Below are positions 9,001-58,900 of a stretch of DNA of 61,238 nt, piece by piece (within the stretch, counting starts at the first letter, position 1; each line of letters opens with the position of its first letter). A model generated the notes under the pieces. That model was not told where the DNA came from, did no database searches, and was given only the letters and a program-made list of their open reading frames with translations. A program made the translations under genes and the position numbers. Location of the stretch: NCBI GenBank assembly GCA_014728045.1, contig WJMH01000012.1:1-61238 (forward strand), read 5' to 3'. This stretch comes from Candidatus Omnitrophota bacterium. GTDB taxonomy: Bacteria > Omnitrophota > Gorgyraeia > Tantalellales > Tantalellaceae.

Positions 9001-12000
9001 GCTGATGGTGACCGCGAGGAAGGTCATATCCAAGGCTTTCGGCACGCATGCTCTGCACTGGAAGACAATACGCATGGGGATCTATACCGCAATTCCCGTT
9101 ACATTGCTGATGCTCGGCGTTACCAAGGCCGTCGGCATGACATCCGCCCCCCTGACAACTGTCATGACGCTTGCTTCGGTTCCGTTCCTTTTGAGTTTGA
9201 CCGGATACCTCGTAGCTCAATGGTATTCGGCGAAGAGGCTTTCTCAGATAGAGTCCAAGATAACGGGTATTTCAAGGACCAGAAGCCTTGTGGCCACGAT
9301 CTTCGAACAGAATGTTCTTAACGTAAGGCAGTGGGCTCCGGGGCTGGGAGCTGTGGCCACAGTTACGCTTTCGGTATGGGGTCTGTTCAGCAAAAGCAGT
9401 CTTATTTCAGGGGTACCGATAACCGTCGGGGTTGTGCTCGGCCTTTATCTTGTGCTGAGAATAGCAAAGGCGATTTATAAGTACCAGTACGCCAACAGCA
9501 ATATCTCCGAGAAATCCATCAAGAGCCTGAGGCTCGCAAGGGATGTAATATCCCGCAACGAGATGATCCGGCTCAGAAGCAGTATCATCGCTTTCAAGAA
9601 GGAGCGCTTCAACACGGATAACCCGTATCTGCTGGCGATCAACAAATTATGGGATGCCTCGGAAGACAATTCGGTCCTCAGCAGGATAATGAACGAGATC
9701 ACGATACACGGTCCTCCGAGCGGCGGGAAATGGGATATATCTGATCTTAAACGCAGTATAGAGAATATCATATATTTCCGCAATACCGTGAACCTTCACG
9801 GCGAAGTCATGCAGAGGAACGAACATGGTGAACTTGCGGTGAACGCCTACCTGGCGCTTTTCAGCGAATTCAATCTCGTCAGGACATATCTTGATAAAGC
9901 TTATGAATCGGCGCGTGATCCGGAGAACTGGATGAAGGCGCTGAGGTATTCGTTCCTTTTTGCCATAGGTTTTCCGATGCTTACCGGCGGCGCGAAGGCC
10001 GCCCATGTCAAACGCACAGAAGCGGTCTATAAACATGAGCAGCAGCTCGAGGAGCAGAGGACCATGCAGCAGATGCGCCGTAACAGGCTCACGGAGCTGC
10101 AGAACATGGAATCGGAAATAGAGCGCATGCTTAATTTCATGCGCCGCAAGGCCCTGCAGGGTGATGTTGAACAGTTCGAAAAGACCGAGGAAAGATTAAA
10201 AGCAACGCTGGAACTGTACCGGTCCGGCAACGCTGAGCTGCTTACCGAACAGGAGAGAGGGGATATTAAGTCCAAATCCACCAATTATGAACTCCAGGCG
10301 CAAAGGCACAGAGCGCTTCTTGAAAAGGTGCTGGCCCAGAGAGAGGCATTTAAAAACGCGAGGAAGCAGGCCAGGCTCAAGGAGCTTGCCGACAGGATAG
10401 ACCAGATACTTGATAAGATGAACGATGCGGCCGAAGGCGCGGACAAGGATGCTTTCGACAGGTGGGCCGCGGAACTGGAGCATATGCTTGAACGCCTTGC
10501 GGAAAACCCGGATATAGGGAAGGATCACCGCCTCATTCTTGAGAACAGGAGACTTGCCGGGATATCCAGGTCGATACTGCAGGCAAGGTTAGATGCCAGG
10601 GAAAAGGAAGTCAAAAGGCTTGAAGAGTTGCTCAAACAGATAAATGCCGCCATCATAGATGCCCACAAGAACGTTTTCGACGAAAAGGTGAGTGAAATGA
10701 AGAAAGCTCTTGCCGAAACGGAACTTCTTGATGAAAGGACCAAGGACAGGTATTCAAGAAGCATAGTTAACGCAGAAGCTGCCATGAAAAGAAGGCTCGA
10801 CGCTCTTGAGAAGGCCAGGGACGAAAAAGAAAAGGCCCAGGTAACAGAGATAGAGTCGATACTTGCAAAGATGGAAGGATCCGCCAAGGCCGCCGACGTG
10901 GCTCTCTTCAACAAACTGAAACAGACGTTGGAGAAAGCCCTAGATTCGGCTGATATGGTCGATGATGTGTCGAAGACCGGTTACAGGGTAAGAGCCCACG
11001 AGGCTGGGGTGCTTTTGAAGGAAGTAAGGGACGCCATGGCGGCCTATCATGACAGGGTCATCAAGTTCGCCAGGACCGCACCGCAGTATGCTTTGGCCGA
11101 GAACGCAGAGAACACCGAGCAGGCCTGGGAAAAGTTCAGGGCCGACGCGGAGAAGATCAGAAGCGAGGCCCCCGGGGTCTATGACTCCGAACTGGTGGAT
11201 GCTTATTTCAGGCTCGGGGAGATACTCCTCCGGAGCGCCCTGAGCGACAGGGTGGATACAGCCGATGTCATAAAGGTCAGAGAGCTTCTTTCCCGCGCCA
11301 AAAAGAGCACCGAGGAGATCGACAGGATAAAGGAACTCATAGATACAATAGCCGAGGAAAAGACCCTGGATAACAGGCTCTTCATACAGCTTGTATTCGG
11401 GTATTCGCTTGGGGACAGGTTGCCGCGGTTCGCGGTGGGGGACGGTTCGGGCAGTACTTCGAGTGACCTGCCGGTAAGTGTGGATTTCAGCGGCTTCCCG
11501 CAGGTGCCGCTATCCACTGCAGACCGCATCCGCCTGGTCAATTCCTTCGAGTCCCAGCAGGACGCTTTGGGCAGATGGTGGATAATGATAAGCGACAATG
11601 GTACACAGAGCGATACCAGTGACGATATCTGGATAGCCGCCGATACATATAATGACATGATCCAAGATCTCTATCCGCAGATTCAGCAGCTCGCCACCGA
11701 AACAGGACATACTATAGATCCCTCATGGCCGGCTACGGTATTTATCGCCAATGCCGGCAATAACAGCGCTCCCGAATGGCAGAGGAACATACGTGAGTTG
11801 GTTAACTGGCTGATAATAGCCGAACAGGCCGGGATATATGAACATTCCGCCTCCGACATGATGGATAACATCATGGAGAACATGGACGATGTTAACGATT
11901 ACCTACGTGAGTACGGGGACGGGGAACTTACCCTCAGTGACGAGGAAGAACTAGGATTGCTCCTCTGGGTCTCTCAGGGGACGGCTGACGGGCATTCGGT

Positions 12001-34755: not shown

Positions 34756-36300
34756 GTGCTTAAACGCACGAAGTTCTTAAAAATAGTATCAATACTAATA
34801 TTATTGATATTCGTACATGAACAGCTGGGGTGGACCTATGACGGTACGGCTGTATGGACCCAGCTGAACGAAGTTCCCTCCCGGTCCGGGAACAAGCTTA
34901 CCCGGCAGATCAAGATCCCCAATGATGTAGGTGAAGTCTGCCAGGCATCTACCGGCCAGGCCGGAGAGGTCATAATAAACATACAGGACGCCCACGCCTC
35001 ACTTTCATCACAGCATTCCATAGTAGATATACTTGATACCCTTGTTGCCAATTACGATGTCAGGTTCATCGCCCTTGAGGGCTCGCAGGGTTACATTGAC
35101 ACAACGCTCTTAAAAACATTTCCCGATGAAAAGATCCGTAAAAACACCGCTGAGTTCCTTATGCGCGAAGGGCGCATGAGCGCGGGTGAGTTCTTCGACG
35201 CGACGCGCGACAGGAAGGATCTGGTGCTTTACGGTGTCGAGGACAACGCCCTTTACCGGAGGAACGTGGAGGGCTTCAGGAAGATCATGGATGAAAGGGC
35301 GCATTATGCCCGGCAGGTTATCGCGCTCCGGGATCAGCTTGATGAGTTAGCCAAAAAGATATTTTCCCCGGAGCTTTACCTCCTGGCCAGATGTTCACGC
35401 CTCCATCGGCAGGGCAGGCTGAGTTTTTCCGATTACTGGAAGGAAATAAAGGGTCTTTCCGGGGATGAGGCGTCCGTTGAGGGTCTGGTGAACGTGGAAA
35501 AGCTCCTGGAGTCGATCCGCACGGAAGAAAATATTGATTTTGCGGGAGCCAACCTACAGAGAAGACAGCTGATAGATGTTCTCAGCGGCACCATGGACCA
35601 GGGGGATATCGAGAAGCTTGTCTTAAGGTCTCTTCTTTTCAAAAAGAACAAGATTTCACAGTCGGATTTCCACGGGTACCTCATCGATCTTGCGGAGGCT
35701 TACGGGGTGGACCTCTCCTGTTACGGTGATCTTGCCAGGTTTACTGAGTATGTCAGGCTGTACGAGAGCATAGACATAATCTCACTTTTCAGAGAGGTCT
35801 CCTTGTTTGAAGAGAGGCTCAGAGAATCGCTTTTCCGTAACGGGGACGAACGTGAACTAGCCCGGTGGATAAAGCTGACCCGGCTGACGGGAGATCTGTA
35901 CAACGTAGAACTTTCCAACGACGATTATGCGGACATCGCCTCACGTATCGGCGAATGTGATGGAATCTCATGCGCGCGCTTTATCCGAAGAGCCTGCACA
36001 GAATATGGAGTACCTGTGGGGCCAGGTTATGATGCCGGTAACATTTTCGGGGGCGTCGAAAAGGCCCTTGAGTTCTACAGGGTGGCCGAGGAGCGCAACA
36101 GCGCCATTCTTACGAACACCATACGAAGTATGCGGCGTGAGAACAAGCAGGTCGCCGCGCTGATAACAGGAGGTTTCCATACCGGGGGCCTTACGCGGCT
36201 CATGCGCGAGAATCGGCTCTCGTACCTTGTGGTAACGCCCAAGTTCGAAAAGGGGAAAGAAAGGCCTTATATAGCCATACTTACCAACAAGAAGAAGCCA
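34756..36300 (+). other. Signal peptide plus conserved N-terminal domain of protein B (Tiki/TraB/EreA/ChaN-like motif order)
   Basis: IQDAH (H 34993), ALEG (E 35077), ERN (R 36094), ITGGFH (H 36178); colinear with 54421-55960 in gene C. Confidence 0.7.
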
Positions 36301-39300
36301 TACCAAAGACTTCTCGAGTCGGGCAAGTATCAACTTGCCATCAGCGCGTATTTCCAGGACATGGATGAGGATAAGTTCGTAAGCGCTGCTGTCTACGCGC
36401 TTTCCAACGTGGTCAAAGAGGGCGGCAACTGGCGTTACGAGGCCGACAGGTGGTACAGGCTCTACAGAGATGAACACGCAAGGCTTAAAGAGGAATCGCA
36501 AGAGAAGATAAAGGGAAGTCTCGCTCCGGAGGAATTCGCCAGGATCCTCGGGGTGGGAGAATACGAAGGTCAGGGGCAGCTCAGGATCGAAAACTGGCAG
36601 GATACGGTCATGGTCGCAAGGATCAAGGACGACCAGAGCGCTTATTTCCGATTGGACCTTGGCGAGGGCGGCGTACTGGAATCCCCCCGGGTACTGTCGC
36701 CTCGTCAGGGCCGAAAGATCCTCGCTGCCCTTGACCGGATAAAGGACTCCGAGGGAGGCAGAGGTCTGGAGGAACGGGTCGGTGAACTCGAGGGCCAGCT
36801 GCAGCGTATCACGGAGCTGGTTGAAGGGGATCTCAAGAGCTCCCGGGATGAGGAACTCATCAGCAGGCTCGGAACCGACCGGGAACTTCTTTTTGCCGTG
36901 GTTTCCCGGCTCGACGGGCCGGGGGAAGTGACCAGGGATCAGGTGGCCAGCAAACTGAAGGCCGATTCGGGTTTTGCCCTGCCCGGTGGATGGGATAAGA
37001 ACGCGCGGCTTGCCAATGCCGTGGAAGAATTCACTCTCCTGGTAAAAGATACCAGAAAGGATATTAACAGGATAAAGAGCGACCTGAGCAATAACCAGAA
37101 GCTGGTGAAGAGCATTGCCGGTATTTTCTTGGGGAACAGGGAGGACCTTACCGCCGGTAATGTCGCGGATTTTCTTCAACGGGACATGAAAGAGCCTCTT
37201 TATGGAAGGTGGGATGAGGTGCCTTCCTTCAGGAAGGCCGTGCAGGAATTCACCGAATGGGTGGGTAAAGTAACTCCTCAGATCATGGACCAGAAGCGAA
37301 AGAGCTATCATTGGGATATAGCCGACCAGGGAAGGTTCGATAACACAATGGCGGTATTCAGCATGCTCTTCAGGCGGATAGGCATTTCCGAGGGCAGGGA
37401 AGAAGCGCCGGTGATCTCACGGATAAGGGGCACGCCCGAGAGACCGGTCAAGGTGCTTGAGGTGGGTTCCGGCAAGCTTTTGCCGGTCACCGGTTATTTC
37501 AGGGGAACACTGGGCAGTTACATGTCACGTCACGGAGGCTCTTTCAAAAGCACTTTTACCCGGGCCTACGAAGAGGGGTTCCCGAACCTGAAGGCGGAAG
37601 CGATCGATCCCAGACTTGAAGACAGGCCCGAGAAAGGTTTCCACAGGGGCAACGCCCTCAAGATGGACATGTTCAAAGATGAGGATTTCGATGATATTTT
37701 CGCTTTTATGGTTTTCAACCCTGAATGCTACTACGAATACAGCTCATTCAACGAGGAGTTCTGGGAAGAGAATTTCCCCGGCGAACTGATGACCGAAGAA
37801 AAATATTACGGGAAAATAGCGGCTGAATTATTGAGGATACTCAAGCCCGGCGGGCGTTTATACATGAGCACCGGCACCAGACACAATGATATTTTCAACC
37901 GTATACTCCTGGAATCTGGTTTCCGGTGTGAATACCTTGATAATGAAGTAGGATATCAGGTGTTCGCCAAACCGGCCGGTGATCCGCTTTCCGAGGAGGA
38001 GCGCAGAGTGTTAACCAAAAGGTCTCTTTCGCGCGTCTACCAGTACCTTACCCATTGTATATCGATAATAAAGGCCCAGCTTGAACTTGTGCCCGAAGAA
38101 GGCGAGCTTAGCGATTCACAGATCGAAGCTCTTAACAAGATCGGGGATACCGCAGAGAACATGCTCGAAGAGCTCAGGGGAGATGACCTTTACGTTCCTT
38201 ATGTAAAAGCGGTCAAAAATCTTCTGAGCAATGATAGCCCCGGTTCGCTGTATTACATATTGGGTTGTCTGCAGCCTTTTCTCACTTATTCCAGGGTATT
38301 ACCGCCCAAAAGAAATATTAATAAGAAGTATTATCAGCATATGAAGAAAAGCCTGGAAGAGATGGTAACAATAGCCTCGCGCATCGACGAGGCCGGGATC
38401 GAAGATATACGGTTCTTTGATTCTGAGAAGTCCGGGGAAGAATACGTAAGCCTCAGGGACTGGCAGAGAAGAAGGCCCATTAGCAGCAGCGAATGGCTGA
38501 CGTACCTGTTCGATACGGGGCGGGAAGATCTCGTTGACCGCATCATGCGCAGCACGGGATCCCGCGAGGTCTTTGAAAAGTACATACCGTCGGTGAATGT
38601 GTTCATGGAGATGGCCGATTCCGGAAGGGTCGCGCCCGGTCCCGGCGAGGAAGAGTTGTTCAAAGACACCAGGGGTTTTCTCCTTGAGACAGATCCGTCC
38701 AGGTTGGAGGAGCTGGGCGGCTTCGCCAGCAGCAAGATAGCTTCATCCTTCTTGGAAGAAGAGAAGAGGCCGTTTTCTTCAGGTGGCGGAGGTTTCCCCT
38801 CTATCCTTTCCATCCTGCTGGCAGGCGGGGTATGGACACTTACCCAGGGTGTGGTTTCGGCGGCAGAGCCGGCAGCGGGCCGGGTGACGTTCAGTGCCGC
38901 TGGCGCGCTGGGCGTGTTCCTCAGCACGGGAACTGTAGTTGCGCTTCTTGCTTTTAGCGCGGGCGCGATCGTAATCGCGCTGATCTCTTCGAAGGTTTTG
39001 AAAAAGTATTTCTCGAGAACATATCTCGGCAGAACGCGCCTTCGTTCGTTCCTGATAGGCGCGGCAGCATTCATGTTGTTCTTTTTCACTTTTAATATGG
39101 CAGAGTCAAGAGGCCCTAAGTCACTGAAGGACCTTTTGAGGACACCTGTCAGTAACGCCAAACAGATCATCAACAGTCTCAGGTCCGAGGAGCCCGAGAA
39201 AGAAGTGGCTCTGGGCGTGCGCCATTCACTCTCGAGCATTAAGGGCATACCGGCCGAAACCATCCTGACCGGAACAGGCACCAGGATGCGCCTTGTTCCC

Positions 39301-42300
39301 TATAGCCGCGTCCAGGACCTTATATCTTCGCCCCCGGAGGGATACAGGATCTACGGTGTCTTTAATACCGCACCACAGAGGAACGGCAGGCACACGACCC
39401 TGGTGGGATCTCAGGGGCGGGTGCTGCGGGCGCGCAACAGCATCTCGACCCGCGCGGGAGGAGCGTTCTATCTGAAATATCCCGACGGCACCGCCAGAAT
39501 AGTAAGCAACACAGATGAGAACTATGAAAAATATATAGAGGGCGAGGATTTTGAGGTGGCGATACAGGCGGGTCCCCTTGTAAAGGAAAACGGATCTATA
39601 AAGGATTCTCTTCCCACCGAATCCACTTCTAGGATCTACGTGGGGGTCGATTCTCTGACGAACCGCACGAAGTTTATGCATGTGGGCTCGGGTGTAACAG
39701 GTTACAGCGACGTCGAGGAGGTACTGGAAAAGCATTTCAAGGGATTTGCGGAGGTGATGCTTTTTGACTGCGGACAGTTCGATATTACGGAGGTCTCAAG
39801 GGACGGTGTTGCCGGCAAGGAACTGGAAGGTGAAGAGGTTTATTGTCTTGCTGTTATGGGTAAGGATCTTCCCGGCCGGAAACCTTTCGCGGAACCTGAC
39901 TGGAAGAAGAGCCCGCTGTATCTTGCCGTTCTAAGCGGGATCGCCGGTATTATAACGCCATTTCTTTTCAGTGACGGGGTGACGTCATCGCTGATGCTCA
40001 TACTGGCCTCGGTCACGGGTCTTTACGCGGCATCTTTCGGCATCTGGAAACACCTCCTTCTGGGAGGGGTAAGACGAGGCTCTTTCCGGAGCGCCGAATA
40101 CCGTTCAAGTTCAAGGGAAGTTGCGCGCCAGAGGGTGCAGATCCTTTTCGCGGAAATCTCCAGGTCCCTTACCGGCGGACGGGTTAGCAGAAAAAGCCGC
40201 GATCTGGTCGGCGGCAGTATTGATTTCGCCAGGGGGCCGGCGCAGGTAGTGCTTGTTGACGAGGATTCATCTCAAGAGGAAAAGGATATTCTCGGCACGG
40301 ATCATGCGGCTTTTGACAAGCAGAAGAACCTGTTATATATTACCGGCAATATGGCCAGGGCACCGGACTGGTTACTCTCTGTTATCCTTGCACATGAAAC
40401 CGCCCATCGTTTTACCCGAAGCGAGTGCCGGGCGAACCTTTTCACCTTGTTCAATATACCCGGGGCGATCAATACCCTGAAGGGGATCTTCTTCACCCCC
40501 GTTGATTACCGCATGGCTTCTTTCGCGAAAGATGCCGATATCCGCCAGAGGAACACAAGGAAAGCGCGTCTTGCGCAATTGCTCGCCGGGAGAATGAAAA
40601 ACGAGGGATATGATATCTCCGCAGAGGATATAAGCACTCTCGGCAGGGTATTCCTGGCCCGGAACGCTTTCAGCGGGGATACAGCAAAGCTATTCGCCTT
40701 CCTGGAAAAAGAGGGGATAGAGCTTTCCCGGACAGGAAGGCTGCTCAGTGAATATTATAATTCATATCGGGATTTTTACGATGCCTACCGGAGCGCTTCT
40801 TCCGGGGGCAGGCTGGATGCGAGTCTTGTTGACGCTAACAGGCTGCTTCCTATAATACGGCTTGTTGATACCTTCGAAGAGGACCAGGACAGGATAGGTT
40901 CTGTAATAACCCGTCTTGATATGGAGAGCTTCAAGCATACTTTTCAGCTTTTGGAAGAGGTTTTTGAACGGGAGGGCATTTCCGACAGGAGAGCGCTCAG
41001 TGTCCTGAAGACACTTATGGGCGAAAGGGATAAAGGCCTGATCAACATGATGGCCGAAGCGCGCGGGACAGGGGCTCTCACGGTGAGTGACCGTGTCCTC
41101 ATGGAGACATCGACGCCTAAAGAAAGGATATACCAATTCAATAACGGTCTATTGAAGGATACAGGCGAACGCGAGTATGCGCTAATGGTTTTCAGGATGG
41201 GCCTTCCCGAGAGGATAAAACGCCGCGTGAAGCATTACCTGGAAGCGAACGGGTTCGATGTGGCCAGCATCGAAAGCAGAAAAGCCGGGATGGACCGTGT
41301 GCTCAGTTACTGGGGCGAAGGCGGCATGCTCGAAGAGGCGCTGAGCGAGCTGGCCGAGGACGGGGTGGGCATTTTCCGGGCAAAAGTGGCCCTGGCCCGT
41401 GGCGACGGCAGGGATTTCGAGAACTGGTTCGCAAGAGTGCAGAGCGAGCATCCGGAGCTTGTTTCCGTTAAGAGGCTGGGGTTTTGGCTGGAGGTGCTCA
41501 GGCGGGGGTATGAGACCGTGATAGTCCGTTCCTCTGTTCCGAGAGAGAGGCTCTCCAGGAAATTCGCTGCTCCGGAAGAAGCCGTCGGTATGAAATTCCA
41601 GGACTTTTTCAGCGAATATGTAGTAGGGGATGAGAACGCCTTCAGGGCCGAGCCGGAGAGCTTAAGGGGGAAGTTCATCGAACCGGCATTACATCCGAGA
41701 GGAGAGCTCCGCCGTATCTTTAAGTCCGCCCAGAAGGTCCTGCCGCTTGAACAGGTGGGCCTTGCCAACTGTATAGACTGCCCGACATACAAAAAATTGA
41801 ATGATAAACGGCAGATCTATCTCCCGGCGGAAAGAGGCAGCTCCCCCGGAGAGATCCCGGCAGTCGTCCGCAGATTCAAGAAGAGCTTAGCGCCGGTCAT
41901 GCCGTTAGATAAATACGCCATCCTGGCGGCGCCCTGGGTGGAGGAGACGTTTTTCTTCTTCGCGCCGATGTTCCTGGGCGGCCTGCTTTTCGGGGTCGCC
42001 AGTTACTGGACAATCGCGCTTGTCGCCGCTGTAAGAGGGGTTTTCTTCTTTCTGCATGAGAGGCCCCGCGAGCTGATGAGCATGCCCCAGGAAGAGATCT
42101 TAAAGCTGTTCAACCCCTCTTACCAAGAGCTCAGAAAGCATGTTTACGCGGACCTTAAATACGTCACCGCTCTTGCCGGGGCATTTGGTATAGAAGAGGG
42201 ATCCGAGGAGATGTACATGTTGCGTGTTATAGCACTTACGCATGACCTGGGAGGAGTGCTGGGCGTAAAACGCGACGAGCAGATCGAGAAAAAGCTCATG

Positions 42301-45300
42301 CTGCTGGCTCTGAACAAGAACGTGGCTTACCGTAACCGCGATCCACTGGACGTGGAAGCCGAGCTTGTGAGCAAGGGAGCAGTGCTTACCGATGAGGAAA
42401 AAGCTTTCATAAGTACCATGGACCATTCCAACAATTCCCTCAGGATCCTGGACAGCTGCGACATAAAAGTCCCGCCTGTTGTGAGAAAGATAATATCAGG
42501 CCATATGGAATCGCCCACCCAGAAGGAACTTGCCGGGTGGACCGAACAGGAGAGACGACTTTTCGCGTGTTTCGCTATAGCGGATGTCTTCGAGACCGGC
42601 AACAATTACTACAAGCAGACGGGAAGGGACCCTGAATACTGGAGAAGTTTCGAATCCCCCGATGAGACAATGAAGTTCATAAGAGAGGTCAAGTTCAGGA
42701 ACAGGCACCTGCTGGTACCTTATCTGGAGAAGGCCGAAGAGTTCATCTCCGCGGGCGGGTTCCAGGAGGCCATCGAGTTCAGCCGTAAACCCATAAGTGA
42801 AGCAGAAATGAGCATGGAGATCATACCGCGGGCGCCGCCTCCGCGCAGGACAGTTCCCCTTGCGGTAGCCGTTTCGGGCGCACTTTTCCCGGGATTGCCC
42901 CTTGTTCTTCCGCAACTTTCTTTAGCTCCGGGATTATTCATCGTGGGAAGCACGACTTTAATAATTATGCTCCATGCGGCGGCCAATGCCCTCGCGCTCT
43001 TCTCGGGGAAATTACCGGCAACTATAGATACCGAGAGGTTCGGAAGGGATAAAAGGCATGTCATACTCCAGACGAACGGTAATGTCTCGGATACAGGGGA
43101 TGCGCTTTATAACGAAGTCTTTTCGGGGGCTGCGCAGATCATAAAAGAGAGGGAGTTCTTCACGTCCGAGCAGCTCAGTATCCTGGGAGGCAACGTCAAG
43201 TTCCGCCTGGTGGAGGGCACCAAGTACCTTATCGATGCGGTGGACCTGACAGGAAAGAGCGACTGGGTCATATCTGTCAACAGGTTCATTTTTGATAATT
43301 ACCATAGCGACAAGGAAGCCTGCCTGACGAAACTTGCGTACCTGCTGGCTTCGCAGTATGACCATATACTTTTTACCGAGTTCTGCCGCGAGAGGAACTT
43401 CGAGCCGGGGGTCGGCGAGAGCGCGGCCATAAATCTTCTGCGGGATACCGCGAGGGTTAACGATAACAGGGACGACGCCGAGAAGCTCGCCAGGTTCCTT
43501 GAGATGGCCAAGTTCCCCTTACGGGACGGGGAAGCGTCTGCCGATGAGACGCCATCGGGCGAATTGCCTTATTTCGCGGATTTTGAATACGAATACGGAA
43601 AGCTGCTCAGCAAGATCCGGGAAGGTTCCTTCTATGGCCTGGATTTCGTGGGCGACCCCGAATGGCTGGACCTGATAATCAATTTCTTCAACAGTAACCT
43701 CGAGTATTTCCACAACAAGCGCCTGAAAAGCGGTAGTGTGCAGACTTACCTGGCCTTTTTCTACAAGATGGAACACCTTGATAAATCCGAGGTCCTGAAA
43801 CATCTCAGGTGGTATGAGAACTATTCCGATTACGGGTGGCTGAAGGCCAAACTCGGCGATGATTTCCGCACTTCCACCATGATAGAGACCGAAGAAGAGC
43901 GAAAGGTCAATATATATTATAATCTGAGCAACGAAGAGTACAGGACTTCGGACCTTGCAAAGCGGCTTTTCCCCGAAGAGGACCCGGATTTCCTGAAAAA
44001 GACCGTCGAGGGTCTTTTCCCCGGCATACGTTTTCACGTCCGGGACCTTGAAGAGGTATATGTAAGGTTCCTCGGAGAGGGCGTCAAAAAGGACGCTTTC
44101 TACTGCATGCTCGTGACCGAAGAGGGGCCGTATGAGTTCGTCCTTCTTCTCAGGCACAAGGAAGTGGATGATGAAGGATATGAGATCATACAGCCCAACC
44201 TGCTGGAGCCGGGAGAAATGGAACAGCTCAAATGGGCGAATATCCAATTCCCCGACCGGGCGCCGCGTATAGGTTCGGTCATCACCAAGCCCGGGACCGA
44301 CACTGTCATACAGATGGGAGTTTCCTATCTCGGCAAAGACCTGGGTCGCATCGCTTCCAGTTCCAATAACAAGCTCACCGACGAGGCGAAGCTTCATTTT
44401 CTGAGGAGCGGGATAGCCTGTTATATAAAAGGCGCCTTCAGAATGGGGGGATTCAGGGTGGTCGACGACCCGAAACCGCAGAACCTGAGTTCTCTGGACA
44501 TGAAAGTCAGCATTGTTGACTATGGTAAACGTTCACGCGGGGACCGCATCGTGTTCCTTACAAAACTTGTGAAATTTCTGGCCTCGGACAGGGGTTTCTG
44601 GGGGATAGGCGGTATAGGTTTCGAAGGCGAGACCAGATATAACACGATATTTGACGCCTTTCTGGAGGCTTTTGAAAGCTACAGAGGACCGAGGAACATA
44701 AACCGTGAGTACAGGAAAGCCCTGGGGATCGAACTTTTAAGGACAATATATGAGGATCCCTACAACTTATTGACCGAAAAAGCGACGGGCGAGCCTCTTC
44801 CGGTCAAGAAAGCCCTGAAAGAGTACCTTGAGAATGTTTTCAAGCATTACCGCCCCTCGTACGTTCTCGCTTCGGACAGGCTGGTAGAAGAGTTCGACTG
44901 GGATCATGTCGCCCGAAGATGCGCCCGGATCGACGCTGGTGAAGAGGTGGTGCATTTCGCAAGTCCCTCTTCCGGACGTAACCCTTACTGGTATATCGCC
45001 CGCATGGCCGGAGTGAGCGAAAAGGCCATGGCCGTGGAAGACCTCACTGCCGGGGAAATGGAGGACATGGTCGACCTGATCATGCTGGATTACCTCACAG
45101 TTCCCAGTAACGAGTATCTTGTGATGCTCAAGAAGCTTTCCCGCAGGCTCCGGGTGGAACCGGTAATTCCCGGAACAAAGGAAGAATACAGGGCGTGGTT
45201 ACGCACCCTTAAGGAACAGGCCCGCGCTTTATCCGAGGGCCGGGATATAGAGCAAAGGACGCCGCAGGTCGATGGAAGGCTGGACGGCGACTTTCTGCTT

Positions 45301-48300
45301 TCTCTCTGCAGGCCCCAGGTCGAGGCTATCCTGGAGGACCTGGCATCCCTGCCCGAAGGATACATGCCGCTTCTTGATAATCCCCATGTTGCCTTCAGGA
45401 AAGAAGAGGTCCTTCTTTCAGTGGCAGACAGGTGGGTCAAGGAGAGTTCCGGCGTCGAGGACGCGGCCATGGTGGAGTTGATGGAAAAAGCCAGAGAAAA
45501 ACTCATAGCGCTGGGCGGATCAGCCGAGGTGGGCGAAAAAACCCCCGATGACTTCGGAAAGAGTTTCTACGGAAGGATCGAAGGTCTTTCCCCGCGTATC
45601 AGGGCCGAGGTCATAGTTGACGAGGCCGCAAGGAACGGCATCACCCGCCTTACCATACAGGATAAGGATACCGCCGAGGAAGCGGTATCTTACGCGCGTA
45701 AAAAGGGTTATCTCATAGACCTGACCTACTATCGCGGTATCCCGGCGGTGGGATGGAAAAAGGCAAAAAAACCCTCGATGCGCCCGGAAACAGCTCCGGT
45801 ACGTGAACGCAAAAAGGGTGCGGGTGTTCCGGCCATGCCCGCCGGGGATATGCCCATGGAAAAGAGCGGTTTTTACAGGGCATGGGAAGAGGCGGTATTC
45901 ACGGGCCATGCTCCGGGAAGGTACTTTCCGACGATTACAAAAGATCCGGCGGAACAGCTCGGCAGTTTCCGGGAGGGCGCCGAATTCCTCTACAATTACA
46001 AGAAGATCATCCCCGGCCTCAATTACATCGCCTCGATGGAACCGGATGAACGTGAGATGGCCAGACGCCTCTCCAGGGAGATCTTTACCAAGCTCCGGAT
46101 AGAGAAGTGGCCTCTTAAGGACACTGAAAGGCTCAACAGTCTGCGAGGTATGGTCAGGAACCTTATGACGGCCGTTTACAATGACAGCCGCACCGGCGAG
46201 AAAATGCGGAGGATAATGCGGGGTGTCACCAATATGATAGGGCTTCTGACCCTCTTCAGGGAACACGCCTTATGTATCGAAAGACTGATCCGTTCGGGGA
46301 AAGTGCCCGGCGGGGTGGACAGTCTCCGGCCGTATATACCCGAGAAATTCCTGGATGTGCCTGGCGGTGTGTCCGAGCGGGAGTATTTTGATTTCATGGC
46401 GGGGCTTGTGCCCTACCAGAGGGTCTTTGAAAAAGGCATACATGCGGAGTTGAGCGGCACGGTGCTCGAACGGGTGGACAGAGGCACCACCAGCATGAAA
46501 GCCTATACGAGCGACCAGCTTCATTTCGTTGTGAAATTCCCGGACCCCGAACAGCAGAGGGATGTGCGCAAAGATATTAAATCGGGCCTTGTCATGGCAA
46601 GAATGCACTTGGGGGGTCTTGCCGCCAATACTTTACCTATAAGGGACATCAGTATCAGAACCAGCCAGGGGACAGAGCAGCTGTCCGAGGCTTTGATACA
46701 GACAAAGGTTACCCCTCTAGGCGAGGCTATCTCTCAAATGGATGAGGCTGGTGACAGTCAGGGCGTCGAGAGCCTCTTGGCAAAATGGTGGAACCTTCAG
46801 AAACAGATGTGGCAAAGAGGCGTTCTGGACAGGCGCATGGACCTGCTTAACGGGTACGGTTACGATGAAGTTACCGGAAGGGTGCTGCTGATAGGTTTTC
46901 ATGAGCTAAGCCGGGAAGTGGGGGATTTCTGGCCGGAGGGCCTTGCGGATAACATCATAGAACTTAACGATAAAAGGAATATCGAAAAGCTTAGCGAGAC
47001 AGCTCCTCTAGTGAACGCCGCCGAGTCATACGCCTCCATAGGCTCGGAAATAAAGGAGGGCCTGCGCGTTGTAAAAAATGATCAGGGCGAAGTGTACGTG
47101 TCTTTGTGGCCGTCCGAAGAAGAGATGTCCTCGGAGGAGCTTTACATACCTCTTAATGACCCGTTCAGGATCGACGACAAGGAATTCGGTAAGATAATAG
47201 GGATAATCGAGAGGCTCATGCAGAGCGGATCTTTCTTTGAGGGGGAGTTGGCCGATGAGGTCATATCCGGGATGCTCGCGCACATCAAAGCCGAGGTCTT
47301 CGGGGTGTTCGCCGAAAGAGAACAGGCTTTGCCGGGAGAAGCTATTTCACCCGCCGGTCCCTGGGGTGGGCAAGCGCCGTTAGAACCATCGACCCTGAGG
47401 TCGTTAAAACGCATGGTCCTTCCGGGAATGGGCTTCTGGCAATACGCGCTCGGCGTCGCGCCGTGGCTTGAAGAAGTCGTTTTCTTCGCGGCCCCGGCGG
47501 TGATCTCGCATGTTTTCTTCGGTCTGGACGCGGTGGGGGCTTTCCTGTTCGTCGCTTCTTCCAGGGCGGCCTTTTTCATGCTTCATGAAGGAGCCAGGCC
47601 TCACGCGCCTCCTGCCGAATACTTCCTACCACTCGCGGTATCAGCTGCGGGTGCGGCGTTATCCGTTCTGCCGGGAGTGGTGCCAGAGCTGGGCAGCATG
47701 CCTGCTGTTTTTATCCCCGTCTCAACCGCCCTTTTGGCGCTCCTGCATCTGACGGCCAACGTTGTCTCTTTTATCACCGGGTATAAGCCAGCTTCCATCG
47801 ATGGCGGGAAAGAAGGACCTGCCGATCCCTGGCAGGGCCTGGACCGGTATGCCAGGAAGGTCTATACCAATATCGTGCAAAAATCTTTCCTCTTCAAGCA
47901 GGCCGAGGAAGGCGAACTTCAGGCCGAACGTTACCTGAACACCTATGAGGAAGAAGATAGTGAGGCTCTGCGCCAAGCCTTGAACGAACTGGTGGATGAA
48001 CATTACCTGGTCCGCATTGAAAAAGAAGAGGATGAACTTTATTACGGGTTAGGGGAAAAAGGCCGTTCCATGTTCATGGCCGCCACCGAGGACCTGTTGA
48101 AAGCGTGGATCAAAGGCATGAAGCAGAACGATCTCAAATGGAGAAGGGACCATATCCGTGACATTAGTTTCGGGTCCATGCTGCGGACGGCACCCGCCTA
48201 CAAGCAGCCGGATCCGGAAAGGATGGCGCTATTCAAGAAGCATTATGACAAGATATTCGACGTCATAACGGAGCTTATCAAGGACGAGATCAGGCTCTTC

Positions 48301-51300
48301 GAACAGGGAGAGGGTAACGACAGCGCTCTGGGCGGCCCCTTGAGCATCATCACTGGCCTGATGCAGAAATGCAGCGCCCTTAACGAACGGGTCCTGGTGG
48401 AAAATATGGTCGAGCATCTGATGATGCTCCCGTATTCGCCCAACGAAAAGGTCCGGGCGGCTTTCCAGCAGTTCTACATGAAGCTTCTCACCGTCGATCC
48501 TGAAAGGGCGAGGACTTTTCTTTTTTATTTGATGACGCATTATTCCGAATATGGCGACGCGATCAAGGAAACCGACAATCCGGTTTTCGGTATTATGGAG
48601 TTCCTGCATGAGGCAGGTGACGAGAACTTTTATTATTTCCTCAGGAGGATAACCGCCTACACTTTCCGCGACCATTCCGGCCAGGTCAACGTCGGACCCA
48701 ACCATCCTCTCAGGTGCCGTACGCGGTGCGGGAGTTACGGTCCAGACCTTGAGGGGGTGATCAGGGACTCCATACATAACCATCTGGGCGTTTACGTTCT
48801 GGGGCTTCTGGAAAGATACCTGGAGTTCTGCGGTACGGGCGACTGGCGGATACTCGCTGATGAGGAATACCAGGTGGACGCTTTCAAGAATGACGAGTTC
48901 CCCCCGCAGGACGCGGTATTCCCCATGCAGACAGTGGAACTATACAAGGGGCCGGAGGCGGATGATACCTATGCCTTGAGAAGAAGCGAGATCGTAAGGG
49001 AGATCTTTCGCCTTCTGGAAGGCGAGTTCGCGGATGAATTAAAAGTCGCAGGAAAGACCAAGTGGGAGAAGCTCAGGAACATGACCGACGAACAGCTGCA
49101 GACGCTTTACGACGCTGTCAACGAAAAGCTCGATACCAGTCTCAAAGTCGACTATGCCGGGTACAGCTTCTCCGGGTACATATACGCTTACCGCGAACTC
49201 TGTAAAAGATACAAGAGAGTGGCGAGCGTCGAGAAACTTACGGATGAACTGGTCAAACTGGCCAGGAACTACAGGGTAAGCAACAGGGTCATTACCGGTA
49301 ACAGGTGGGCCAAGGAGGATGACCCGGCATACCTGGCGATAAAGAGCGATGACCCGGCCGAAGCACTTTCGGCAATACTGAGGGCCAAGAGGAACATACG
49401 GAATGAAGTCTTCAGCGGTGAGCTTGATTATGATCGCCTGGAGATCATGGAACAGTTCCAGCGGGACTGGGGCAGGGATGATACGGGTAACGCCTACGGG
49501 GGAGCATGGGTCAAGGACGACCTTGTCGGTCTTTACATGACCGATAACATGCTCACCATGATAGAGAACCTGCACATAGAGAGAGCCTCAAGGCAGTTCA
49601 TGGAGATAAATTCACGGAATATCGTAAGCGCGCTTGAGTATCTGAGAGTCCTCGCCGAACTGAGTTATACAGAGGGACTCGTTTCGCGTTCTTTCAGGGA
49701 CCATGTCGATACGCTTCTTCAGAGGAAGGGCCTGGACTTCTCCGTGGCCAGGGATATAATCCATTTCATGCAGCAGGAATTCGTAGAGATAAAGAACTAT
49801 ATCAACCAGAACTCGGAGAACTACATCCACGCCATGCTGGACGCCGAGGGAATATACGGCGAGCGCAGGACAAAAGAATTTGACAGAAGGCTCAACGAAC
49901 TTATCAATTATGACAAGGTCTACAATTCGGCCAGAGGTCTGATAAGAAAGATCGGCAAATACGCCGAAAAACGAAGAGGGGTTTTCATAGAAGGCGAAGA
50001 GGAGAAACCGGTGGAGGAAGAGCCACTGCTCATCGGAGGGACCGTGCCAGGGGAAGCCCTGGATAAGACCGTTTCGTCGGGCCGGTACGCGCTTTCCTCT
50101 AAAGGACTTGAGCTGGCGAGGACCTCCTCGGAAGGATTGCCCATACCCGAGGGCGTAATAATACCCGCCACAGCATCGGATGAAGTAACGGATGAACTTG
50201 CCGTAGAAGGCATCAGGATGCTCGAACGCCATCTTAATACCCTTGAGGGTTTCGAGAACATGAAGTTCGGTTCTTCACAGGACCCGCTTATTGTCTCGGT
50301 GAGGTCGGGAGCCTATGTCGTGATGCCCGGACAGATGCCGACGATAGCCAATGTCGGTCTTTCAAGGGATACCATTGACGGTTTTACTGATCAGCTTGTT
50401 GAACGCGGCGTAGATCTGCGGGACGCACGCTGGACCGCCTGGGACTGTTATTCGAGGTTCCTGCAGAGTTACGGGGTTTCAGTGCTGGGAATAAGCGAAC
50501 AGCATTTTATTTCCCGGGAGGAAGATCTGCTGAGCGAGACCGGTGCAGCTGATAAAAAGGACCTTTCACTTGAGAAAATGAAGGCCCTGGCCGGACGGTT
50601 CGAAGGCGTGATCATTGACGTTGCCGGCAGGGATAAGCTGCCCCTGACCGCGGAAGAACAGTTCAAGTACTGCGTGGCCGCGGTTAAACGGTCCTGGGCC
50701 GAATCGGACGATTACCGTGATAATATTGGCCTTAAGGGAAGATGGCCGGGAACCGCGGTGCTTATACAGCGCATGGTCTTCGGAAATATAAACAGGGATT
50801 CGGGTGTCGGGGTAGTAAATTCACGGATGGTGAACGTGCGTAAACTGGGGCTTGAAGGCGATTTCCTCTGGTTCGGCCAGGGGGACGACATAGCCCAGCA
50901 CCGGGCCGAGGGCCTGGTCCAGATACAGGATATCGGCGAGCAGACGCCTTGGAAAAAAGACCTTGAAAGATACGCCGAGATGATCGAGACATCCCTGGGT
51001 ACCATGGCGGAAATAGAGTTCACTGTGGAACTTGGCAAGGTGTACATATTGCAGGTCAGGGACGCCTATATCGATGTTCGCGCGCAGGATTACCTGTTGA
51101 TGCCTTCTGAGGGTGACCTCCTGGCCAGAAGGGGCAGGGTCATACCCGCCTCGGGAGGAGCCTATAGAGGCAAGGTATACGTGCTCCACGGGCGCAAGCC
51201 CGATCTCGAAGAGATAGACCGGCTGTACGCCGAATCCAGGGCGGCAGGCGGTGACGGCGTATTGATAGTCGCCGATGACCTCAGTCCCGAGCAGCTGGGC

Positions 51301-54225: not shown

Positions 54226-54286
54226 GGTGTACTACGGAAAAACATGGAAATACAGTTAAAATATAAAATAGTTAGAAACATATATA

Positions 54287-54315
54287 TTGACTTTTATTGG
54301 CATTTACGCTATACT
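54287..54315 (+). promoter_or_regulatory. Putative sigma70-type promoter of gene C
   Basis: TTGACT (54287-54292), 17-nt spacer, TATACT (54310-54315): close to consensus. Confidence 0.65.
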
Positions 54316-54407
54316 TAGATATAGGCTGTAAAAATAGAAAAAGTCAGATACTTACACTAAGCGTGGAAGTGCGCTCAATATATATATAATATTATATGAA
54401 AACATTT

Positions 54408-54415
54408 AAAGGAGA
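54408..54415 (+). promoter_or_regulatory. Ribosome-binding site of gene C
   Basis: AAAGGAGA; the GGAG ends 6 nt upstream of ATG 54421. Confidence 0.8.
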
Positions 54416-54420
54416 AGACC

Positions 54421-55960
54421 ATGTATTCAAAAAGCCCTAAAAGATCCCTTTTCTTGAAGGCGGTAAGCGTTTTTCTTGTGCTTACCTTTTCCATGTACAA
54501 CATAAGCTATGCCGTTACCCAGGACAATCTGGAACCGGCCGGTATCAAGCAGGATATGCCTTTATCCGTGGAGGATATTGGTATAGCCATTGATTGCGGT
54601 ACGGTCAAGAACCGTTTCAACGGCAATGACGGGAAGGTCATAGTGCACATCCAGGACGCGCACTGTAATTACGAGGCGCAGTCCAATATAAACAAGATGC
54701 TTGACCAGCTGACAAGGGAATGCGAGATAGACATGATATCTGTCGAAGGGGCTGAAGGGATCGTCGACACTACATGGTTCAGGGCATTCCCGGACTCAGA
54801 GATACGCAAAGAGGTCGCTACTTATTTCATGAAAAAGGGCGAGATAACGGGCGCCGAATTCTTTTCCATAACAAGTGAATACCAGGGCACCATATTCGGT
54901 GCCGAGACCAGGGATTATTACGTGAAGAACCTGAGGGCCTTCACGGAAGTATATCCGTACAAGGAAACTATTGAGAAATATTTCACGGACGCCCGTACCG
55001 TGTCCAACCGTCTCAAATCCATAGTCTACACGCCGAAGCTCAAGGAACTGGACCTCAAGATAAGGTCTTTTGACGAAAAACAGACCGAGCTCAGCGATTA
55101 TGCCGCCTACCTTAATAAGACAGCCGAACAACAGAGAATAGATCTCAAGGACCTTGAGGATTTCAAAAAACTCGTCCAGACCCTCGAATACGAGGAAAAG
55201 ATAGATTTCGATATCGTTGACCAGGAAAGAAGCAAATATATCGATGTTCTCAGCAAAAAGATGGACAAGGAGAAGATGACCGAATTGGTGACCCAGAGCA
55301 TCAGGTTCAAGAAGGGTCATATCAAGGCGGTGGATTTCTATTCCTATCTCAGGGAACTGGCCAAGGAACACGATATAGATATGGTGCACGAGTACCAGAA
55401 CCTTTTTTATTACTATATATACACCAAACTTTATGAGGGTATCGATAACGAGAGGCTTTTCAAGGAGATCGACACTATTGAAGCCCGGCTCAAGGAGTCC
55501 TTTTTCGAGAACGGAACCCAGAGGAAGCTCGACAAGTACTCGAACATGCTGGATATGTTCATCGATCTCATAAACATAGAGCTTACCAATGACGATTATG
55601 ATCTATTCAAGGGATATTCCGAAGAGTTCACGCTTGAAGAGGTACTGGATTTCATGACAGGACTTGTGGAGAGGTACAACCTCAATTACACGGTCGACGG
55701 TATGCCCCTTGAGATAAAGAACAATATACCCAAGATGGTTGATTTCTACGAGATCGCCATAAAGAGGGATAACGCCCTTATCGAGAACACTCTCAAGCAG
55801 ATGCAGCAAGAGGGCAAGAACAGGTGCGTTCTCATAGCTGGCGGTTTCCACACCAGAGGTATTAAGCACATTCTTGAGAAAAAAGGTGTTTCTTACGTAG
55901 TGGTGACCCCCAAGATCACCAAAAATGTCGAAACGCCTTATATAAAGGTACTTACGAACC
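54421..55960 (+). other. Signal peptide plus conserved N-terminal domain of protein C (paralog of the protein B N-domain)
   Basis: HIQDAH (H 54661), SVEG (E 54745), KRD (R 55765), IAGGFH (H 55849), SYVVVTPK, PYIKVLTN. Confidence 0.75.
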
Positions 55961-58900
55961 AGAGGACGTCGCTTGAGGATATAATCACCGAAAGCGCGGC
56001 AGTTCCCGGTATAGGCATAACCGCGACACGGGAAGAGATAGTAAGGCCCAAGGGGGATATGCTGAGTCCGCTTCTCAGGGTAGCCTACACCATACCGATG
56101 TATCTTGAAGACCCGGAGGCGCTCAAAAAGCTTTCGGACGCGACAGGTCATATCCCGGAGAGCGAGTCGCTTTTCACCACGGCCGAAGGTTCGTATAAAG
56201 AGATGGTGACCCTGCTTGTGAGGGGCTGGCTCGTCAAGGTCAGGGAAAAGGCCGATCCGGAAGTATGGAAGACAGCGGTCGGAGACTGGCATCTTCTTCT
56301 CGGCGCTTTCCTCAAAAAATACGAGGAAGAGGCCGCAAAGCAGGGAACTCAGGTGATAGCGGGGCTTAAGATACCGGCCCCGGTACTTACCGAAGAGATG
56401 CTCGATGCCATAAGCGGCGAGTTCAGGGCCATATTCAGGGACGAGGTCGTTAAGAGCGTTACACCCGGGACCGAAACCGTTGATACATATGATATATATC
56501 CTTCTCTTACTTCAGCCCAGGCTGACGGGTACAATGAGGTGATCAGACCTTACATGGAGGCCACTCCGGACCCGGTAAAGATCTTTACTTTCAAGATAGA
56601 CGGCCGGAACAGGGAGATAAAGGTGTTCGCCCTTGAGAACCTCAAGGACGCCGTGGAGGAATACAACCTGGACCCCGTACACGGAGAAGAACTTCCCTTG
56701 ACCGTGGAAGTACATCCCGGACGTGGTCTTGGTCACGACGACCCCAGGCTTTACATATCAGCCGGCGCCTTGAAAGCCCTCAATGACAATCAGTTAAAAC
56801 GCTTGGCAAAGCATGAGCTTTATCATATACTTTTATTGGAAAAAGGTGAAGCTTATGACGAAGAGAAGGTCATCGAAATGATGGGAGGGGACAACCTTAT
56901 GGATATAAGGGTCACTCTGGCCAGGGTGGAGGAACAGAGGCAGGCCGTTAAAGCCGAAGAAGCCAAAAGAGTGCACGACAGCCTTATAAAAAGCTCTCTG
57001 GACATGGCTGAAGCCACTTCCAAAGGCATAGGCCCGGACGTGGTCATCATCGTAAGCTCTTCGGATGAACAGGCTGATTTCTGGCAGGAGAGGCTCACCG
57101 GTGACGATAATAAGACCGGTTCCGGCGAAGCTGTCAAGGAAGGCGCGGTCGTTCTTTCCGTGTCCGAATCGAATTGGAAGGGCGGCGCCGGCAATGGCAT
57201 GGGCACGCTTAACGGTTTTGTACAGGCCGCGCGTAAAGCGAACAGTCTCGGGCTTATAGACGTTGATTCATATGCTTCGGTTACGGAGTTCATTGACGCT
57301 ATGCTCACTTACTGCAAGGGCAAGGCCGCTTTCATGTTCCATACCGCGGGTAAAGGTACCCGTACCGCTCCGTTACCCGGTGCGGAGGTCAACTCAAAGC
57401 CGAATATCAAGCTTCCGAAGATGGTTGATGTGAAAGGCCAGCAGAGGCCGCTTACCATACTTGAGGCCGTTCTCATGGAAACCAATATTTACGCTCCTTC
57501 AAGGACAGACAGACTGGGTGTTTTCTGGGGTGACCAGGTGGTCATCAACGAGAACGATATATCCTTCGGCGGGAAGCACCACGTTGAGATATTCGGGCAG
57601 CTTGTTCCGCTGGATCCGGATATCAAGTCCTACGGAGTGCTCATTCCGGGAGAAGAAGGCGACTGTAAGCAGAGAGAGAAACTGTCTATGGATGAGGTCA
57701 AAAAACTGCTCCCGGAGGGCAGCAGCGACGTATACAAGAGCATAGGTTCATTCACTATTTCGCTCCCCTTTCTGGAAGCGATGATCATGATGCCAGAACA
57801 CAAAAAGCTGCTTGAGTCCGAATCGGGCAGCCTGAACACAGATCCCGACTGGTGGCAGCCGCTAACCTCCACGAGAGATGAGTATATAGAGATGATCGGC
57901 AAAAAAGGCGTCTCCCGCGCTAAAGCGGGCCAGACCTGGGACAGGATGCAGGACCTCTGGGTAAAATTCGTCGCTTCCGACAATTGGGACCCGGATAGCG
58001 GCCTGTACAGGCAGCTTGGATTCAACGACGTCGGGAAGAACTCGCTCTGGTGGGATTACGGGCAGAACAAATTCTACCTGAGGAACATGCAGATCCTCAC
58101 CGAGTACAGCCCCGAAGGGGAAGCTGCAAGGAATTTCTTTGACGCGGAGATAACCGACAGCAAGACTGACCAGCTGGAAATCGAAAAATCCGTCATCAAG
58201 AATTCCGATGTGAAAAGAGGAAGGCTCGTCAACTGTGTCGTCATAGACAGCCAGCTTGAAGAGGTCTACGCCGAGAACGCTGTTATTATAGGAAGCGTGG
58301 TATTAAAGCTTAACGCTGAGGACGCGTTGTGCTACAATGTCGTTAGCGAGTCCGTGAATCTCGCTCCGGGGCAGGTCCTGGCCAATATCTTCCATCCCAA
58401 ACTCGGACGTATACCGATGCGCACGGATATCGGAAGGGACGGCAGCGCCGACTGGAAAGGCGGAGTCCATGTATACGACAACGCTTACACTTACAGTAAG
58501 ATAGCCGAGCTGATGAAGGGCCTCAAGATGGAAGAGGTTATGGAGACCAAGAAAAAAGCTATTTCTGCGGTAAGGATAGGTTTAGATTGGGCGGGTAGAA
58601 GACAGGATCTCACCGCTCAGAATCTCAGCGACAAGAGAAATATAGGCATTTCAGAGGCACGCCACATCGTCGCGCACAGGATGCTGACTTTCGGTGACGT
58701 GCCGTATTTCACGGTGGCCAGTTACGCCAAGCTTTTTAATGTTTCCCCGCGCCAGGCGGGAGAAGAACTGGAGGACCTTGCTTCTGCGGAGAGGGAAGGC
58801 GCCCCGACAAGCGGCGTGGAAAGCCTTGAGGCCTATGTTACCCTTACAAAAGGGAAATTGAGCGACCTGGTGGACCAGGTCAACGAACAGGGGCTTATCA

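Follow-up and report, generated by a model that had tools for sequence, protein, structure and literature searches.

Whether the giant proteins of Candidatus Omnitrophota, which range from 10,000 to >100,000 amino acids (aa), act as single chains or as cut pieces is an open question. Domain analysis of these proteins has been blocked by the lack of known cleavage points, with C39 and S8 peptidase domains as the only pointers to processing (West-Roberts et al., bioRxiv 10.1101/2023.11.21.568195). The locus considered here is a stretch of 61,238 nucleotides from one Candidatus Omnitrophota genome (GenBank assembly GCA_014728045.1, contig WJMH01000012.1, positions 1 to 61,238; hereafter "the window"). 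One of its giant open reading frames (ORFs), ORF B (34756-54225, + strand, 6,489 aa), hosts two copies of a small membrane module, the first of them split by an inserted domain. A first-pass annotation of the window had described this arrangement as an HD phosphohydrolase inserted inside a CPBP intramembrane protease, with the uninterrupted paralog downstream. With moderate confidence, we read the locus as a divergent CPBP-like membrane module with a nested HD-like domain, and as a candidate for a built-in processing enzyme. The giant-gene context is known; what is new is a minimal, lineage-restricted CPBP-like module that sometimes carries a nested HD-like domain. Since this module bears CPBP-type residues at defined positions and is framed by conserved flanks, it offers a concrete processing hypothesis that can be tested by mutation.

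Two copies of one module, one of them split

All features described here lie on the + strand, within the single uninterrupted ORF B. The N-terminal half of copy 1 (41833-42069, ORF B aa 2360-2438) includes a P-A-V-V flank (41857-41868) with a short amphipathic helix beside it, a Glu pair in helix 1 (E2396-E2397, 41941-41946), and a second helix that ends in FFFLH (42043-42057). The insert follows directly (42070-42828, 253 aa, ORF B aa 2439-2691) and is modelled as all-helical. The C-terminal half (42829-43080, aa 2692-2775) then resumes with RAPPP, helix 3, helix 4 with HAAAN (42973-42987) and a P-A-T-I flank (43015-43026). Copy 2, located 5.5 kb downstream, is an uninterrupted four-helix module (47368-47850, aa 4205-4365) displaying the corresponding P-S-T-L (47386-47397), EE (47470-47475), FFMLH (47572-47586), HLTAN (47746-47760) and P-A-S-I (47788-47799) elements. 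The coordinates and residue strings of the first-pass annotation proved exact. No third copy of the module was found in the window.

Both halves of copy 1 were recognized by hmmsearch, with domain independent E-values of 1.1e-43 for the N-terminal half (profile positions 1-81) and 6.2e-42 for the C-terminal half (positions 80-171). Once the insert is removed, copy 1 is 163 aa long; its alignment with copy 2 covers 151 aa at 40% identity and has only two one-residue gaps (E-value 6e-35 without and 1.5e-26 with composition correction). The flanks of the insert are thus homologous to copy 2, as had been proposed, and by their sequences the two modules are paralogues. This alignment also maps the insertion to a single loop, in line with the earlier claim: the insert starts just past the motif-2 His, four residues after it (FFFLHERPR / insert / RAPPP), and ends directly ahead of a conserved (R/H)APP motif. 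Copies 1 and 2 alike keep the EE, FxxxH and HxxxN motifs and lack the motif-1 Arg, which is what the first reading of the sequence had reported.

AlphaFold2 (AF2) predicted, with high confidence, four long helices that are the same in the intact and the split copy. The model of copy 2, built from a 26-sequence alignment, reached a predicted local distance difference test score (pLDDT) of 86.2 and a predicted template modelling score (pTM) of 0.81, with helices at residues 23-50, 56-71, 82-104 and 112-136. For the nested copy 1 (pLDDT 82, pTM 0.72), the first two helices span residues 25-53 and 58-74 (pLDDT 96-98) and the last two residues 340-358 and 366-390 (pLDDT 93-97), and most of the all-helical insert is modelled with a pLDDT of 84-94. 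By these predictions, the two halves of the split copy would come together in the bundle modelled for the intact one.

The charge distribution gives this bundle an orientation. Lys and Arg residues average 3.0 per copy in the N-terminal flank, 2.8 in the loop between helices 2 and 3 and 1.9 in the C-terminal flank, vs. 0.07 in each of the loops 1-2 and 3-4, which places both ends of the module as well as the insert-bearing loop on the cytoplasmic side. No hydrophobic segment was found between copies 1 and 2, or between copy 2 and the ATP/PEP-dependent PPDK-like domain of ORF B, which fits a cytoplasmic location of these regions. The EE motif early in helix 1, the His ending helix 2 and the HxxxN motif late in helix 4 are all located toward the cytoplasmic face, and the insert begins adjacent to these putative catalytic residues.

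A rare module of Omnitrophota giant proteins

To evaluate the distribution of the module, we searched 1.84 billion (1.84e9) representative proteins with HMMER, using a profile of the two window copies. Only 22 proteins were matched, which makes the module very rare; ~21 of them are true members, including ORF B itself (as the identical library protein P0001). One match (P0020) was spurious and driven by repeats, and was discarded. The other hosts are large proteins or fragments of large proteins, often with two copies of the module each, and every named one is a protein from a metagenome-assembled genome of Candidatus Omnitrophota. Word-indexed searches with copy 1 and with the insert alignment yielded nothing, and one with an alignment of 28 module copies returned just a 286-aa fragment, from an index that evidently lacks most giants; a scan of genome contigs with the two-copy alignment returned no matches. 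Overall, as far as sequence searches reach, the four-helix module is compact and nearly confined to the giant proteins of Candidatus Omnitrophota.

Conservation was assessed on 28 extracted copies, which are 22-40% identical to copy 2 (whose numbering is used here). Residues Y26, E35, E36, H127 and N131 are invariant, and F39, F69, H73 and several Pro and Ala positions are nearly so, with H73 invariant in the 26-copy alignment. The copies fall into two subfamilies, with EE-x-x-F-F and with EE-x-I-F-T, and the two copies of one protein (P0015) form an outlier pair with EEGLFRG and EEGLFRW.

Both flanks are conserved as well. Upstream, the pattern reads (S/P)-P-A-x-I/L-x-x-L-K-x-x-x-A-P...Y-A, and downstream an x-P-A-x-I/L stretch lies ~10 residues past the Asn of HxxxN; where modules occur in tandem, one P-A-x-L is common to both neighbours. 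Four of the five P-A-x-I/L sites in ORF B are module flanks. Beyond the module, the motif is not enriched in the giant ORFs A, B and C of the window (observed 3, 5 and 1 vs. expected 3.2, 2.5 and 1.0), and a role as a general processing signal in these ORFs was rejected on this ground.

The module has no fixed neighbouring domain, and the domains around it are shuffled between proteins. The region that directly precedes copy 2 (ORF B aa 3705-4204, window 45868-47367) comes right after the module in three other proteins (P0003, P0004 and P0007), and the region just upstream of copy 1 (aa 2129-2357, window 41140-41826) follows the module in P0003. These shifted positions indicate that the domain order around the module is permuted from one protein to another.

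Probable relationship to CPBP proteases

In the CPBP proteases MrtX and MmRce1, a water molecule is bridged by a Glu and a His, and a His and an Asn form the oxyanion hole (PMC11980579). The three corresponding motifs follow one another in the module as they do in CPBPs, on helices 1, 2 and 4 of its four: Glu-Glu at the start of a helix, F-x-x-x-H ending the next one and H-x-x-x-N two helices later. The P0015 copies, which carry the full EEGLFRG and EEGLFRW motifs, match the Rce1-like Pfam family PF02517 over almost its whole length (positions 11-92 of 93, E-value 9e-4, 19.9 bits for a gathering cut-off of 22.4 bits). PF02517 is the sole Pfam family matched by more than one module member, and the best NCBIfam match is the CPBP protease MrtJ (E-value 1.2e-3); CPBP-family models thus come first in two independent libraries, which counts against a chance resemblance. 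A comparison profile was also built from 12 CPBPs of viral (phage) contigs, identified through a codon pattern and a follow-up scan. When aligned to it with hhalign, motifs 1 and 2 of the module matched weakly but in register (E-value 4.4e-4, probability 34%), with an extended AP-x-x-EE-x-h-F pattern common to the module and the 12 true CPBPs. With E140, H173, H227 and N231 as the equivalent residues of MmRce1, the His-His spacing of 54 would equal that of copy 2 and the Glu-His spacing would be similar. MmRce1 has eight helices.

The module departs from the characterized CPBP and Rce1 proteases in several respects. It has four core helices only, unlike MrtX with its seven (PMC11980579), and in 26 of the 28 copies a Phe or Thr stands in place of the motif-1 Arg, which only P0015 retains. 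Unlike standalone CPBPs, the module is embedded, often in multiple copies, in proteins of thousands of residues, and unlike CPBPs it has conserved P-A-x-I/L flanks, with all of its database scores below threshold.

This lost Arg is one of several observations that weigh against a CPBP assignment. The hhalign alignment stops short of motif 3, Pfam gave no CPBP match at all for the window copies or the family consensus, neither of which attains a curated threshold for CPBP, and Rce1 was not retrieved by profile searches of PDB sequences. In a Foldseek search with the copy 2 model, the best PDB match was not significant (E-value 2.2), and in BFVD a CAAX-protease-like protein of a giant virus ranked fifth (E-value 2.2, TM-score ~0.38), helical membrane bundles being hard cases for Foldseek. 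More generally, searches of PDB sequences with the module profiles, the insert, the insert profile and a P0015 copy gave nothing meaningful, and a match to a de novo TIM barrel was rejected as a repeat artefact. A tblastn search of plasmids with a made-up CPBP consensus returned no matches, probably since the query was masked as low complexity.

Taken together, we consider homology of the module to the CPBP superfamily likely, and its sequences would most likely represent a very divergent branch of the CPBP/Rce1-like glutamic intramembrane endopeptidases. The name CPBP given in the first-pass annotation agrees with the conserved polar residues, and goes further than the profile scores of either window copy.

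An HD-like domain nested in the module, and its recurrence

The insert displays putative ligands in the order H...HD...H...H...D, namely H2462 (42139-42141), H2496-D2497 (42241-42246), H2557 (42424-42426), H2583 (42502-42504) and D2610 (42583-42585). These ordered ligands, the predicted all-helical structure and a series of weak but repeated model matches liken it to HD phosphohydrolases (PF01966, TIGR00277). Among the NCBIfam models, HDIG (TIGR00277, E-value 0.017) and TIGR00295 (E-value 0.0019) were matched. The closest relative of the insert is a domain on a metagenome contig (Ga0272443_10001247, here L001), which is 43% identical to it, has the same ligand set and covers positions 12-114 of the 116 in the Pfam HD profile (E-value 0.0016, 19.1 bits). 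When the nested model was searched against the PDB with Foldseek, 20 of the top 50 structures belonged to the HD superfamily, including cyclic-nucleotide phosphodiesterases, SAMHD1, a dNTP triphosphohydrolase and the putative phosphohydrolase 2ogi, and such structures predominate among the soluble proteins matched; none was significant (best E-value 0.15), and the composite query of transmembrane (TM) helices plus insert weakens this search.

Speaking against this assignment, the support for HD stays below curated cut-offs everywhere: the insert itself scores 14.3 bits against Pfam HD (PF01966, E-value 0.05), under the cut-off of 22 bits, and the consensus of the insert family 16.6 bits, also sub-threshold. 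It differs from HD-GYP domains in having no GYP motif, and from usual HD proteins in being nested within the loop of a membrane protein. We nonetheless regard its membership in the HD superfamily, as a divergent representative, as quite probable. The earlier designation as an HD domain holds for this general resemblance, and falls short at the Pfam cut-off.

The nested architecture, for which the first-pass annotation had suggested a search, recurs in a second giant protein, P0010 (7,165 aa). It contains two split module copies, each with its insert 2-4 residues past the motif-2 His, and the two inserts share 33% and 31% identity with the window insert (E-values 5e-36 and 4e-28). The nesting is thus neither an accident nor an assembly artefact. 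The ligands are less well preserved, which also weighs against the HD assignment: the HD dyad reads HN in both P0010 inserts, and in the first (P0010a) the fourth His position is a Tyr and the final Asp an Asn. This suggests that catalysis is not what the nested form conserves, and the degeneracy of the P0010 sequences argues against hydrolysis as the conserved role of the nested domain.

The insertion appears to be the derived state, because most modules are uninterrupted. On a neighbour-joining tree of the modules, window copy 1 did not group with the nested copies of P0010, and the window insert is closest to the L001 domain, which is un-nested, with its HD intact, in a soluble stretch.

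The L001 giant protein has other features of its own. Directly after its HD-like domain comes a cytidine-deaminase-like H-x-E...C-x-x-C pattern, and the protein also carries a HIT/GalT-like HKHYHWQ motif. L001 1-6750 includes a different membrane module, twice repeated, with, in succession, the signatures ...AFRPLSWWSL.GLGGG.DW..., SFRR..ASVIAST.AIRE... and ..HDIGHDDLAL.KL.

A candidate built-in processing enzyme and the alternatives

What could such a module do within a giant protein? As we picture it, the module would make four passes through the inner membrane, start and end on the cytoplasmic side, and thereby pin a mostly cytoplasmic giant polypeptide to the membrane. The Glu/His pair would activate a water molecule and the His/Asn pair would form the oxyanion hole, a scheme that the position of the conserved residues on the cytoplasmic side suits. 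The module has probably kept the chemistry of a glutamic endopeptidase, its active site facing the cytoplasm, and may act on the giant protein itself or on its neighbours. The flanking P-A-x-I/L stretches are the only candidate cis-substrates, and cleavage there would split ORF B into approximately three large pieces. Sitting in the loop between helices 2 and 3, at the mouth of the putative active site, the nested HD-like domain could act as a cap or a regulator, and would modulate access or activity by ligand binding, not necessarily by hydrolysis; as the domain has degenerated in P0010, binding or a structural role is more plausible than hydrolysis. An active endopeptidase, the cleavage of self or neighbours and modulation by the HD-like domain are all inferred.

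The first-pass annotation had further suggested that the giant proteins could be cut within their TM segments. Nothing found here points to this, and the only conserved candidate sites are the cytoplasmic P-A-x-I/L flanks. It is tempting to go one step further and to speculate that the Omnitrophota giants are true polyproteins, cut in cis by their modules at P-A-x-I/L into large cytoplasmic pieces, with a nucleotide-binding HD-like domain on the active-site mouth of the nested copies making the cut conditional on a small-molecule signal; we hold this extended scenario to be very doubtful. If the module is a CPBP, it would be a protease pared down to four core helices and, in its nested form, one that houses a soluble domain in a loop beside its active site. 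No CPBP with a soluble domain nested in its active-site loop was found in a limited literature search.

A rather unlikely alternative, and the one that survives best, is that the module is a non-cleaving membrane anchor, or "staple," derived from a CPBP or resembling one. Its polar residues would then hold the bundle together, bind a metal or a lipid, or serve a non-proteolytic reaction, as in scaffold or acyl-transfer CPBP-like proteins, and the HD-like insert would just add to the cytoplasmic domains strung along the anchor. An anchor for a cytoplasmic polypeptide has to start and end on the cytoplasmic side, as this module does with its even number of helices, and neither the loss of the motif-1 Arg in 26 of the 28 copies, nor the shuffled neighbouring domains without a fixed partner, nor the degenerate nested domain of P0010 would be surprising in a protein that does not cleave. 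A CPBP-family protein with a non-protease role, in lipoprotein N-acylation in S. aureus, is also reported (PMC7387801). However, the strict invariance of E-E, H, H and N within membrane helices, among copies only 22-40% identical to copy 2, exceeds the needs of a simple anchor, and ordinary hydrophobic helices in ORFs A and B anchor these proteins without such residues. Should the module be an anchor only, its description would amount to a modest annotation of a lineage-specific domain family.

It is less probable still that the resemblance to CPBPs is convergent or due to chance, and that the module is an unrelated new four-helix family whose conserved residues form, e.g., a metal or ion site. 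Such an origin would be consistent with the sub-threshold scores of all sequence matches to CPBP models, with the hhalign probability of only 34% and with the lack of a significant Rce1 or CPBP match in Foldseek. It would however have to account for three motifs occurring in the same order on equivalent helices, for the AP-x-x-EE-x-h-F pattern found in true CPBPs, for the two members that match almost the whole Pfam profile with complete EEGLFRG and EEGLFRW motifs, and for CPBP being the top family in both libraries. Finally, copy 1 might owe its split to a misassembly or a chimeric contig, or to a recent insertion that disrupted it and left only copy 2 functional. In favour of this idea, copy 2 and most family members are uninterrupted, but it is scarcely credible and largely refuted: the frame is continuous over both junctions in a 19.5-kb ORF, no motif residue is lost from either half of copy 1, the two halves are modelled at an AF2 pLDDT >90, the junctions bear no DNA-level signs of recent insertion (no repeats, no compositional break), and the homologous inserts in the same loop of both P0010 copies, at 31-33% identity, show the arrangement to be old and maintained.

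Genomic setting

The window holds three giant ORFs arranged head-to-tail on the + strand: ORF A (17-34420, 11,467 aa), ORF B, and ORF C, which starts at ~54400 and runs off the window end after >2,279 aa. ORF B is a giant membrane-anchored multidomain protein, with hydrophobic clusters at aa 1-19, 1377-1449, 1721-1763, 2398-2432, 2700-2739 and 4241-4340, and with PPDK_N and PEP-utilizers domains near aa 5170-5590. ORF A encodes a divergent SecA-like region (window 5200-7300, aa ~1730-2420; SecA_PP_bind E-value 3.6e-20, SecA P-loop E-value 3e-13, and a weak DEAD match), and ORF C an embedded, complete four-domain phosphoglucomutase/phosphomannomutase (window 59100-60700, aa 1568-2099). SecA-like, PPDK and phosphoglucomutase domains along with many TM helices have been described for Omnitrophota giant genes (West-Roberts et al., bioRxiv 10.1101/2023.11.21.568195), and the window resembles these giant multidomain proteins in its tandem huge ORFs, its many TM helices and its divergent SecA DEAD/preprotein-binding region. 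The CPBP-like module differs from the possible processing proteases discussed for Omnitrophota giants in that study and in a second preprint (10.64898/2026.06.07.730766), which are C39 and S8; the main text of neither mentions CPBP, CAAX or PF02517, and our searches found no literature pairing Omnitrophota with CAAX.

Several minor features of these ORFs were also noted. In ORF B, an HExxH motif (ILAHETAHRF, window 40393-40407, aa 1880-1884) lies ~120 aa past the pair of hydrophobic helices at aa 1721-1763; it has no Pfam match and could be a zinc-metalloprotease-like site. In ORF A, ~10 hydrophobic helices are clustered at aa 2719-3147, after the SecA-like region, and this cluster explains a dip in AT skew at 8001-10000. 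The GC content drops to 0.445 at 54001-56000, across the junction of ORFs B and C and the start of ORF C, vs. ~0.52 elsewhere.

The giant proteins also resemble each other at their ends. ORF B and ORF C open with homologous stretches of ~520 aa (32% identity, E-value 1.4e-75; window 34756-36330 and 54400-56000) that start with a hydrophobic segment followed by a common motif, ...I(N/H)IQDAH...(L/V)EG(S/A)(Q/E)G..., with no Pfam match; this shared N-terminus looks like a conserved "head" domain of these giants. Likewise, ORF A and ORF B end in ~380 aa of homologous sequence (23% identity, E-value 5e-13; window 33260-34417 and 53125-54222), and the giants therefore have a C-terminal domain in common as well.

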